Shown here: positions 60,154 through 60,874 of the stretch, one piece after another
Position numbering within the stretch: position 1 is the first letter of the stretch
How the letters are laid out: each line of letters opens with the position of its first letter
Notes under the pieces: generated by a model
Told to the model about the DNA's origin: nothing
Databases searched by the model: none
The model's input: only the letters and a program-made list of their open reading frames with translations
Translations under genes and position numbers: made by a program
Origin: Escherichia phage vB_EcoM-Ro157c2YLVW
Reading direction: 5' to 3' (one strand)
DNA: 64,000 bases
Sequence record: NC_050153.1

Positions 60154-60874
60154 ATGAAAGGCGAAGTGAAAGAGCGCGGCATGATTTTCAACGATGAGAT
60201 GGTCCGGGCCATCCTTGAAGGAAGGAAGACGCAGACTCGCCGACCTGTAAAAAATGTCAGGGCCGATAACTGCCTGGTTATCCGTAAACCGACAAAGAAA
60301 CGCAATGGTGTCTATACCCACGTTATGGATGCACCTGAACATGGTTTATGCCCGTTCGGTAACGTTGGTGATCGCATATGGGTCCGTGAAGCGTTGGCGA
60401 TATTAGGCAATGAGGATGGTTGCAGTGTACTGGAACGACAACCTTTGTCGTGGCGATGAGAAGAACGCAGCAAGGATTTATCGGGCCAGTTGCGAGCAAA
60501 AACCTGGTGATTACGGCTTATGGTCGATACCCGATGATGCCGACTGGAAACCTCACACTGTGAATGAAAAGTTTGATGGTGGGTGGCGTCCATCAATTCA
60601 CATGCCGCGATGGGCATCACGCATTCTGTTGGAAATTACCAACGTGCGCGTTGAACGGTTGAACGATATCAGCGAATGCGATGCAAGGGCTGAGGGCGTT
60701 CCGCCTGCTGGGAGTTTGCTTCCTGATCACCCGGGAACATTCCTTACTCCCAAGGGGGATTTCGCAATGGCCAAGGTTGCGTTCCAGCGCCTGTGGGAAT
60801 CCATCTATGGTGAAGAAAGCTGGAACGCTAATCCCTTGGTGTGGGTAATCGAGTTTAAGCGCATTCAGGAATAA
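60154..60874 (+). pseudogene. ASCH-like domain gene split by a frameshift (60154-60459 and 60410-60874)
   Basis: N-part has MIFNDEMVRAILEGRKTQTRR and GDRIWVRE; C-part (different frame, 50-nt overlap) has WRPSIHMPRWASRILLEITNVRVERLNDISECDARAEG...NPLVWVIEF. Confidence 0.45.

Follow-up and report, generated by a model that had tools for sequence, protein, structure and literature searches.

Between positions 60154 and 60874 of the 64,000-nucleotide stretch of Escherichia phage vB_EcoM-Ro157c2YLVW analysed here (NC_050153.1; the window from here on), two overlapping reading frames seem to divide one protein between them. The original prediction, made from the letters alone, saw here an ASCH-like gene that a frameshift had broken in two, and named a recent inactivating mutation, a sequencing error or a programmed frameshift as causes. 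Which of them applies here, or are the two halves ordinarily separate genes? The comparisons described below make it very probable that a heritable 2-bp deletion has turned the pmgT homologue of a P1-like phage-plasmid into a pseudogene, with loss of function deduced from the sequence. No paper on phage vB_EcoM-Ro157c2YLVW came up in a literature search.

Identity and surroundings of the locus

Megablast of window positions 60000-61000 matched phage P1 and many P1-like elements. The same kilobase was matched in 1208 E. coli RefSeq records, plasmids accounting for 1003 of the 1229 matching places. The P1 counterpart of the gene is pmgT (gp095, YP_006561.1), annotated with a 'putative morphogenetic function' and located 3' of pmgS and pap under the C1-controlled operator OpmgT/Op88. 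The P1-type order pmgS, pap, operator OpmgT and pmgT is kept in the window, and positions 59930-60160 are 97-99% identical to P1 84263-84493. Judged by gene order and sequence, the region is a homologue of phage P1 pmgT on a P1-like phage-plasmid. The features surrounding the gene are the following.

59959..59975, + strand: C1 repressor operator OpmgT (formerly Op88), ATTGCTCTAATAAATAT, one base off the annotated P1 operator
60058..60144, + strand: 28-codon hydrophobic ORF, MNTAFKIIMAAIYFWLFSITFGGIVAHG, lying 3' of the C1-controlled promoter and 5' of pmgT
60878..60961, + strand: PAPS-reductase-like (NinC-type, PP-loop) relic outside pmgT, a 27-codon ORF reading VSMHQIVSFSGGRASACLVHL joined to FEEVVA and a stop

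In P1 the predicted sigma-70 promoters P2pmgT and P1pmgT, which control transcription of the pmgT operon, overlap operator OpmgT. The operator is still intact in the window, presumably with the function that the P1 annotation gives it. The 28-codon ORF has a good Shine-Dalgarno-like sequence (CAGGAG) and a single synonymous difference to P1, where it is unannotated; in phage SJ46 the matching stretch lies under features named 'hypothetical protein' and 'membrane protein'. Its product is probably a small membrane peptide, and the pmgT operon probably begins with this cistron. The pmgT leader also includes a perfect 10-bp inverted repeat at 60008-60030, ACATGCCGCGCC/TTG/CGGCATGT on the minus strand, identical in P1. 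A T-run follows it on the minus strand, and it resembles a terminator directed at the end of pap.

On the other side of pmgT, the relic at 60878-60961 joins roughly the initial 21 codons of a 292-aa gene of phage vB_EcoP_phi346 (943-1821 of the compared locus) to its final 6. It is what an in-frame internal deletion left of this Stx-phage gene and has retained the ATGA overlap with the next gene. In the intact plasmid ECO2 the corresponding place is an equally long stretch (84 nt) that bears no annotation, with DNA about 98% identical to the window, and the relic is therefore probably older than the deletion in pmgT.

Two reading frames, one gene

Both half-gene ORFs are present as predicted, in different frames, with ORF2 in the +1 frame relative to ORF1. 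The 50-nt overlap given for them (60410-60459) is right if counted from the ATG; both frames are actually open over 53 nt (60407-60459).

60154..60459, + strand: ORF1, 5' part of the pmgT pseudogene, 101 aa, MKGEVKERGMIFNDEMVRAILEGRKTQTRR...GDRIWVREALAILGNEDGCSVLERQPLSWR
60237..60393, + strand: mosaic variable cassette, from DNA and protein alignments, with the hypervariable columns at about residues 27-65
60410..60874, + strand: ORF2, 3' part of the pmgT pseudogene, 154 aa, frame open from 60407

ORF1 comprises the ASCH N-terminal strand-helix-strand with GRKTQTRR, the variable cassette and the DRIWVRE strand (GDRIWVRE). Past the deletion described below it continues for 10 out-of-frame codons (LERQPLSWR and the stop at 60457-60459). 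ORF2 reads ...WNDNLCRGDE...SIHMPRWASRILLEITNVRVERL...NPLVWVIEFKRIQE, includes HMPRWASR and NPLVWVIEF, and consists of a conserved insert (WNDNLCRGDE...SIHMPRW) and the remainder of the ASCH barrel (ILLEITNVRVERL ... VWVIEFKRIQE). As far as can be told from the sequence, its ATGs at 60410 and 60416 are unusable, with a Shine-Dalgarno spacing of only 0-2 nt, and no in-frame re-initiation codon was found near the ORF1 stop.

The two halves match adjoining parts of a single family, phrog_874, the family of P1 PmgT. ORF1 matched profile positions 61-144 (E 3.5e-32) and ORF2 positions 138-259 (E 9.4e-55), while the intact ECO2 protein reached E 1.1e-92 and intact proteins were covered from end to end. 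Intact homologues of 224-242 aa span both halves in one frame. Furthermore, among more than 8000 homologues in a large protein collection the best 120, a few fragments excepted, were undivided proteins 213-318 aa in length; they came from Escherichia, Klebsiella, Citrobacter, Raoultella, Kluyvera, Pantoea and Edwardsiella. The possibility that the halves are normally separate genes is thus contradicted by the intact homologues, which are single genes. The 'one small domain' of the original prediction proved too modest a description, the intact protein being about 236-242 aa long, with an ASCH-type barrel that is broken up by a hypervariable loop and by some 80 residues of conserved insert. The window gene matches the PmgT family profile and lacks a single uninterrupted reading frame; by these sequence comparisons it is a pseudogene member of the family. 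P1 PmgT itself occupies the same locus and belongs to the same phrog, and the shared parts are near-identical DNA, with an unbroken run across about 60400-60700. It differs in being intact and 309 aa long, with a different cassette and a different C-terminal extension that overlaps pmgU, whereas the window allele is frameshifted and carries two Trp-to-Leu changes.

A GG dinucleotide is missing

Alignment to intact homologues, suggested in the original prediction as the way of locating the indel, was carried out at the DNA level with the alleles of P1, the P1-like plasmids ECO2 (L003), L006 and L009, an E. coli plasmid of about 48 kb, Yersinia phage vB_YpM_41 and the Mu-like PhiR68_1. It placed a 2-bp deletion of GG between 60428 and 60429.

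60428..60429, + strand: deletion junction, GCAGTGT-GG-ACTGG (CSVDWND) in intact alleles against GCAGTGT-ACTGG in the window
60394..60396, + strand: W77L, VREA(W>L)AILG, TGG to TTG by G>T at 60395; TGG in all intact alleles
60836..60838, + strand: W225L, NP(W>L)VWVIEF, TGG to TTG by G>T at 60837

Every intact allele aligned reads GCAGTGTGGA(C/A)TGG where the window has GCAGTGT--ACTGG, and the intact proteins read ...GNEDGCSVDWNDNLC... across the lesion. Intact proteins such as P0128 and P0008 (236 aa) have the same cassette and the same 3' end as the window, and CSVDWNDN at the site. The other length difference between the window and the ECO2/P1 allele is of 6 nt, in frame and inside the mosaic cassette. 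An inactivating mutation, the first of the proposed causes, is therefore supported by the absence of GG relative to every intact allele aligned. The deleted GG lies outside any homopolymer tract. Phase variation was also considered and was rejected, since the GG is not in a repeat tract.

The allele is real and widespread

Fourteen complete E. coli plasmids matched the 251 bp around the lesion (60230-60480) at 100% identity; their sources were beef, cattle, veal, salad, flies and humans, and the USA, Germany and Japan are among the countries of origin. In all, 92 records covered at least 80% of this segment; the other listed records with the window cassette span 253 bp, i.e. they have kept the GG. 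The exact deletion junction was found in one IMG/VR contig. Gene calls on 845 public contigs (927 collection blocks) give exactly the 101-aa product of ORF1, which has also been deposited for Escherichia phage vB_EcoM-Ro157c2YLVW; the heavy sequencing of Shiga-toxin-producing E. coli inflates these counts. The allele is widespread among the P1-like plasmids of E. coli, and Shiga-toxin producers are the hosts of many of these. Scanning the GTDB species-representative genomes for the exact junction gave no match; the allele resides in plasmids of non-representative E. coli strains.

An error of sequencing or assembly in the window, the real gene being intact and reading GTGTGGACTGG, was a reasonable thing to fear, given that lone frameshifts in otherwise conserved genes are often errors. 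The same lesion recurs in plasmids assembled independently by different laboratories, from different countries and serotypes, as well as in the IMG/VR contig and in all the contigs with the exact ORF1 product, the GG does not lie within a long homopolymer and two linked substitutions accompany the deletion, so that we regard this cause as excluded, with next to no chance of being the true one. Actually, PGAP labels the deletion alleles as 'frameshifted' pseudogenes (for example HZT35_RS29430 in NZ_CP058684.1, E3159_RS27920 in pF1273-3 and A2F94_RS29405 in NZ_CP027575.1). The pmgT frameshift is thus already known, flagged as a pseudogene in RefSeq, and its mechanism is ordinary.

The O157:H7 plasmid pF1273-3 (NZ_CP038378.1; the 50 kb at 45001-95000 were inspected), which bears the identical allele, is annotated with several further pseudogenes: a KilAC antirepressor and a creatininase fragment, both frameshifted, a ppfA interrupted by a stop codon, and several partial genes of the variable region. 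They suggest either that accessory genes are eroding generally or that the annotation is misled where P1 genes are known to overlap.

Recombination around a constant core

We compared the window with 15 other deletion-bearing loci. The segment 59994-60579 was identical in all 15 except for three differences affecting one or two loci each: L016 has a single substituted base, and L011 and L019 share an inserted base and a change at 60504. Upstream of 59994 (58118-59993, comprising pmgS, pap and the operator region), the window and each of the 15 loci differ at about 26-52 positions. At the other end, from 60580 on, the allele has either a 3' end of the P1/ECO2 type, as in the window, or one of the vB_YpM_41 type (L007, L008, L018 and L024), and farther downstream the gene content varies too among the carriers. 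This pattern places one recombination breakpoint near 59994 and a second near 60580, which divides the two alternative 3' ends of the pseudogene. Since 59994-60579 is nearly invariant while both flanks vary, the broken segment appears to have been carried through, or moved by, several recombination events. Among the RefSeq plasmids with the 'frameshifted' gene, eight listed records, including NZ_CP058684.1 and NZ_CP038378.1 (pF1273-3), are 100% identical to positions 60000-61000 of the window; the window nevertheless differs upstream of 59994 from all 15 loci, and so comes from a recombinant relative and from none of these very plasmids. The variable region that holds pmgT is a known hypervariable part of P1-like phage-plasmids (PMC9603915). 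As for the mutation being 'recent', the almost complete lack of variation within the allele agrees with it in terms of sequence divergence, though the allele is already widely distributed and joined to different flanks.

Substitutions at conserved tryptophans

Both Trp-to-Leu changes (W77L and W225L, P0008 numbering for the latter) are restricted to the frameshifted lineage when compared with all the other alleles. The W77 column is aromatic in all the displayed rows of an alignment of 45 sequences (Trp, with Phe in one), and W77L is common to both deletion-bearing sub-lineages. W225 is invariant in 45 of 45 homologues, and W225L is found only in the sub-lineage of the window type, being absent from the deletion sub-lineage with the other 3' end (L007, L008). 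Two members (L011 and L019) have a further Pro-to-Leu change at 60504, and the lineage has two synonymous changes besides. The substitutions fit the prediction of relaxed constraint, though the numbers are small. The lesions at 60395, 60428/60429 and 60837 all strike G within TGG, as two G>T transversions and the GG deletion, what may be a shared mutational signature, e.g. of oxidative damage, or a coincidence.

Can the frame be restored?

The two overlapping ORFs of the window have a superficial likeness to prfB, dnaX and the tail-chaperone G/GT genes, where two overlapping ORFs encode one protein. In those genes the shift takes place at a defined slippery sequence, helped by stimulators, and even diverged homologues have kept it. 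In the window, by contrast, slippery sequence, stimulators and conservation are all absent. Restoring the frame requires a shift of +1 or -2 within 60407-60459. A scan of these 53 nt detected no X XXY YYZ heptamer, which settles the search for a slippery heptamer that the original prediction had suggested, and neither a codon or codon pair at which a tRNA might re-pair at +1 nor a homopolymer run that could serve transcriptional slippage. The 99 nt downstream (60432-60530) fold no better than shuffled sequence (z -0.14). The Shine-Dalgarno-like GAGGA at 60411-60415 is present in all the intact alleles as well and is not specific to the shifted one. In addition, the frameshift is confined to one near-identical lineage, the homologues down to 62% identity being single ORFs.

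The sole geometric option by which programmed or leaky frameshifting could give a full-length protein would be a -2 slip of tRNA-Val from GUA (60427-60429) to GUG (60425-60427) in A-GUG-UAC. Its product would read ...CSVYWNDN..., complete except for a single D-to-Y change. The GUGUA was created by the deletion itself, the re-pairing in the P site at -2 would be cognate and the allele is widespread, all of which would suit such a slip. The codon that follows in the zero frame is CUG, the Leu codon used most in E. coli, at which a ribosome should not pause, and neither slippery site nor stimulator accompanies it. The shift occurs in one lineage among listed homologues that are single ORFs, and the Leu in place of an invariant Trp speaks against selection for a functional protein. 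With no slippery site, stimulatory structure or conservation outside the lineage, and with extra damaging substitutions, the programmed frameshift that had been proposed as a cause is left unsupported, and frameshifting that restores the protein is extremely unlikely. A weaker form of the idea, hardly more credible, is that of a leaky, down-tuned allele that is maintained, in which the accidental A-GUG-UAC would allow a low-frequency -2 slip giving PmgT with Asp changed to Tyr, or, in a related version, that the loss was selected in Shiga-toxin-producing hosts.

The identical allele, widespread between varying flanks, could also be read as maintenance and not as neutral hitch-hiking. The split gene might then still work, either by reassembly of the halves or through an active 101-aa fragment (dominant-negative or binding), or its loss might itself be selected. 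Conservation of the promoter, the operator and the ORF1 ribosome-binding site would favour this, as would an allele that stays unchanged while its flanks recombine, and the hypervariable cassette hints at a role in an arms race in which loss could sometimes pay. Against it, a credible start is lacking for ORF2 (at 60410 and 60416 the ATGs stand too close to a Shine-Dalgarno sequence, and a re-initiation codon is missing near the ORF1 stop), the break falls between barrel strands and leaves ORF1 with only three barrel elements, W225L in the untranslated half resembles decay, and no result obtained here favours selection. A functional split gene is accordingly very unlikely, and a plain loss-of-function deletion is the reading that we follow from here on.

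The intact PmgT family

The cassette of the window is of the type found in the alleles of Yersinia phage vB_YpM_41 and of E. coli plasmids of about 48 kb, and is nearly identical to that of vB_YpM_41 and of many E. coli plasmids. It cannot be aligned with the P1/ECO2 cassette, in spite of nearly identical flanks. There are at least three mutually unalignable cassette versions among E. coli P1-like plasmids, and the corresponding loop is hypervariable across the 45 homologues. The alignments suggest recombinational swapping of a specificity or arms-race surface on a protein with an ASCH fold that is otherwise very conserved. A diversity-generating retroelement was discarded as a source of the cassettes, which are unalignable and differ by indels, not by adenine-specific substitutions. 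The insert of about 80 residues (P0008 76-152; about 60400-60630 in the window) has invariant Cys86, Cys110 and His146 and a nearly invariant His131, four residues that could form a metal site.

The label 'ASCH-like' held at the level of fold (model and Foldseek) and fell below the sequence threshold of Pfam. The window halves gave no ASCH hit in Pfam, and with Pfam and NCBIfam neither the halves nor the intact homologues reached any family above threshold; the intact homologues scored 13.7-18.2 bits against PF04266, over profile fragments only, with a gathering threshold of 21.2. ASCH membership by sequence was rejected on these scores and the fold was examined instead. A profile search of PDB with the 45 homologues returned nothing relevant, and the PADLOC defence models gave no hit. 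The AlphaFold2 model of P0008 built from the 45 homologues was of no more than moderate confidence, with a mean pLDDT of 60, 73-89 in the barrel and about 30 in the insert (76-152). With this model the top nine Foldseek hits were of ASCH type, with the PUA-like beta-barrel fold. That the intact PmgT homologue is an ASCH/PUA-like beta-barrel is thus reasonably well established by the predicted fold.

The N-terminal GxKT...R motif is present in ORF1 as GRKTQTRR (about 60217-60240) and is nearly invariant in the 45 homologues. In E. coli YqfB, an N4-acetylcytidine amidohydrolase with a minimal ASCH domain (PDB 9kyf/9kyh), Lys21, Thr24 and Arg26 are essential, with a Lys-Thr-Glu triad completed by Glu74 and an oxyanion Arg (PMC6972931). 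PmgT has no significant sequence match to YqfB, which lacks the hypervariable loop and the insert of about 80 residues with Cys and His of the PmgT family. The segment ILEGRKTQTRR aligns with ILAGRKTITIR of YqfB, and in the hhalign alignment, which has a probability of 7% and covers only the 20-residue N-terminal motif, Lys, Thr and Arg of PmgT stand opposite Lys21, Thr24 and Arg26. PmgT has a nearly invariant Glu in a DAxAEG motif, which may or may not correspond to YqfB Glu74. From fold and motif we infer that intact PmgT would be a nucleic-acid- or nucleoside-directed ASCH enzyme or binder, expressed once C1 repression is lifted.

Consequences of the deletion

Loss of the GG moves the frame by +1, and translation from the normal start ends after 101 residues, leaving the remaining 60% of PmgT in a frame that has no ribosome-binding site of its own. 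On the P0008 model the break comes directly behind DRIWVRE, the third element of the barrel, where the conserved insert begins. ORF1 is, as modelled, the N-terminal third of the barrel, and ORF2 the rest, without a usable start. Neither fragment would hold a complete barrel, and for this reason the gene is best seen as a loss-of-function pseudogene. The operator, the promoter and the ORF1 ribosome-binding site appear intact, and the 101-aa N-terminal fragment is probably still made on induction. Since the deletion, leucine has replaced tryptophan at two conserved positions. The allele has also spread widely through the P1-like plasmids of E. coli, its neighbouring DNA on either side being altered by recombination.

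Such a loss may have been tolerated through the dispensability of pmgT. Knock-down of P1 pmgT by CRISPRi left the efficiency of plating at about 1 and the gene was scored as non-essential, as it had been in previous work (PMC10695390). Phage JL22 has other genes in place of pmgT and is still capable of lysogeny (PMC9603915).

The region would be best annotated as one pmgT pseudogene and not as two hypothetical proteins, and in gene catalogues of P1-like phage-plasmids ORF1 and ORF2 should not be separate families. The allele also provides natural evidence that pmgT is dispensable for the maintenance of P1-like plasmids, because hundreds of assemblies, and one phage genome on deposit, have the broken form. 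Of greater biological interest is the intact family, with its ASCH fold, YqfB-like motif residues, Cys/His insert and cassette-like loop, which is common to P1-like, Mu-like and other temperate elements.
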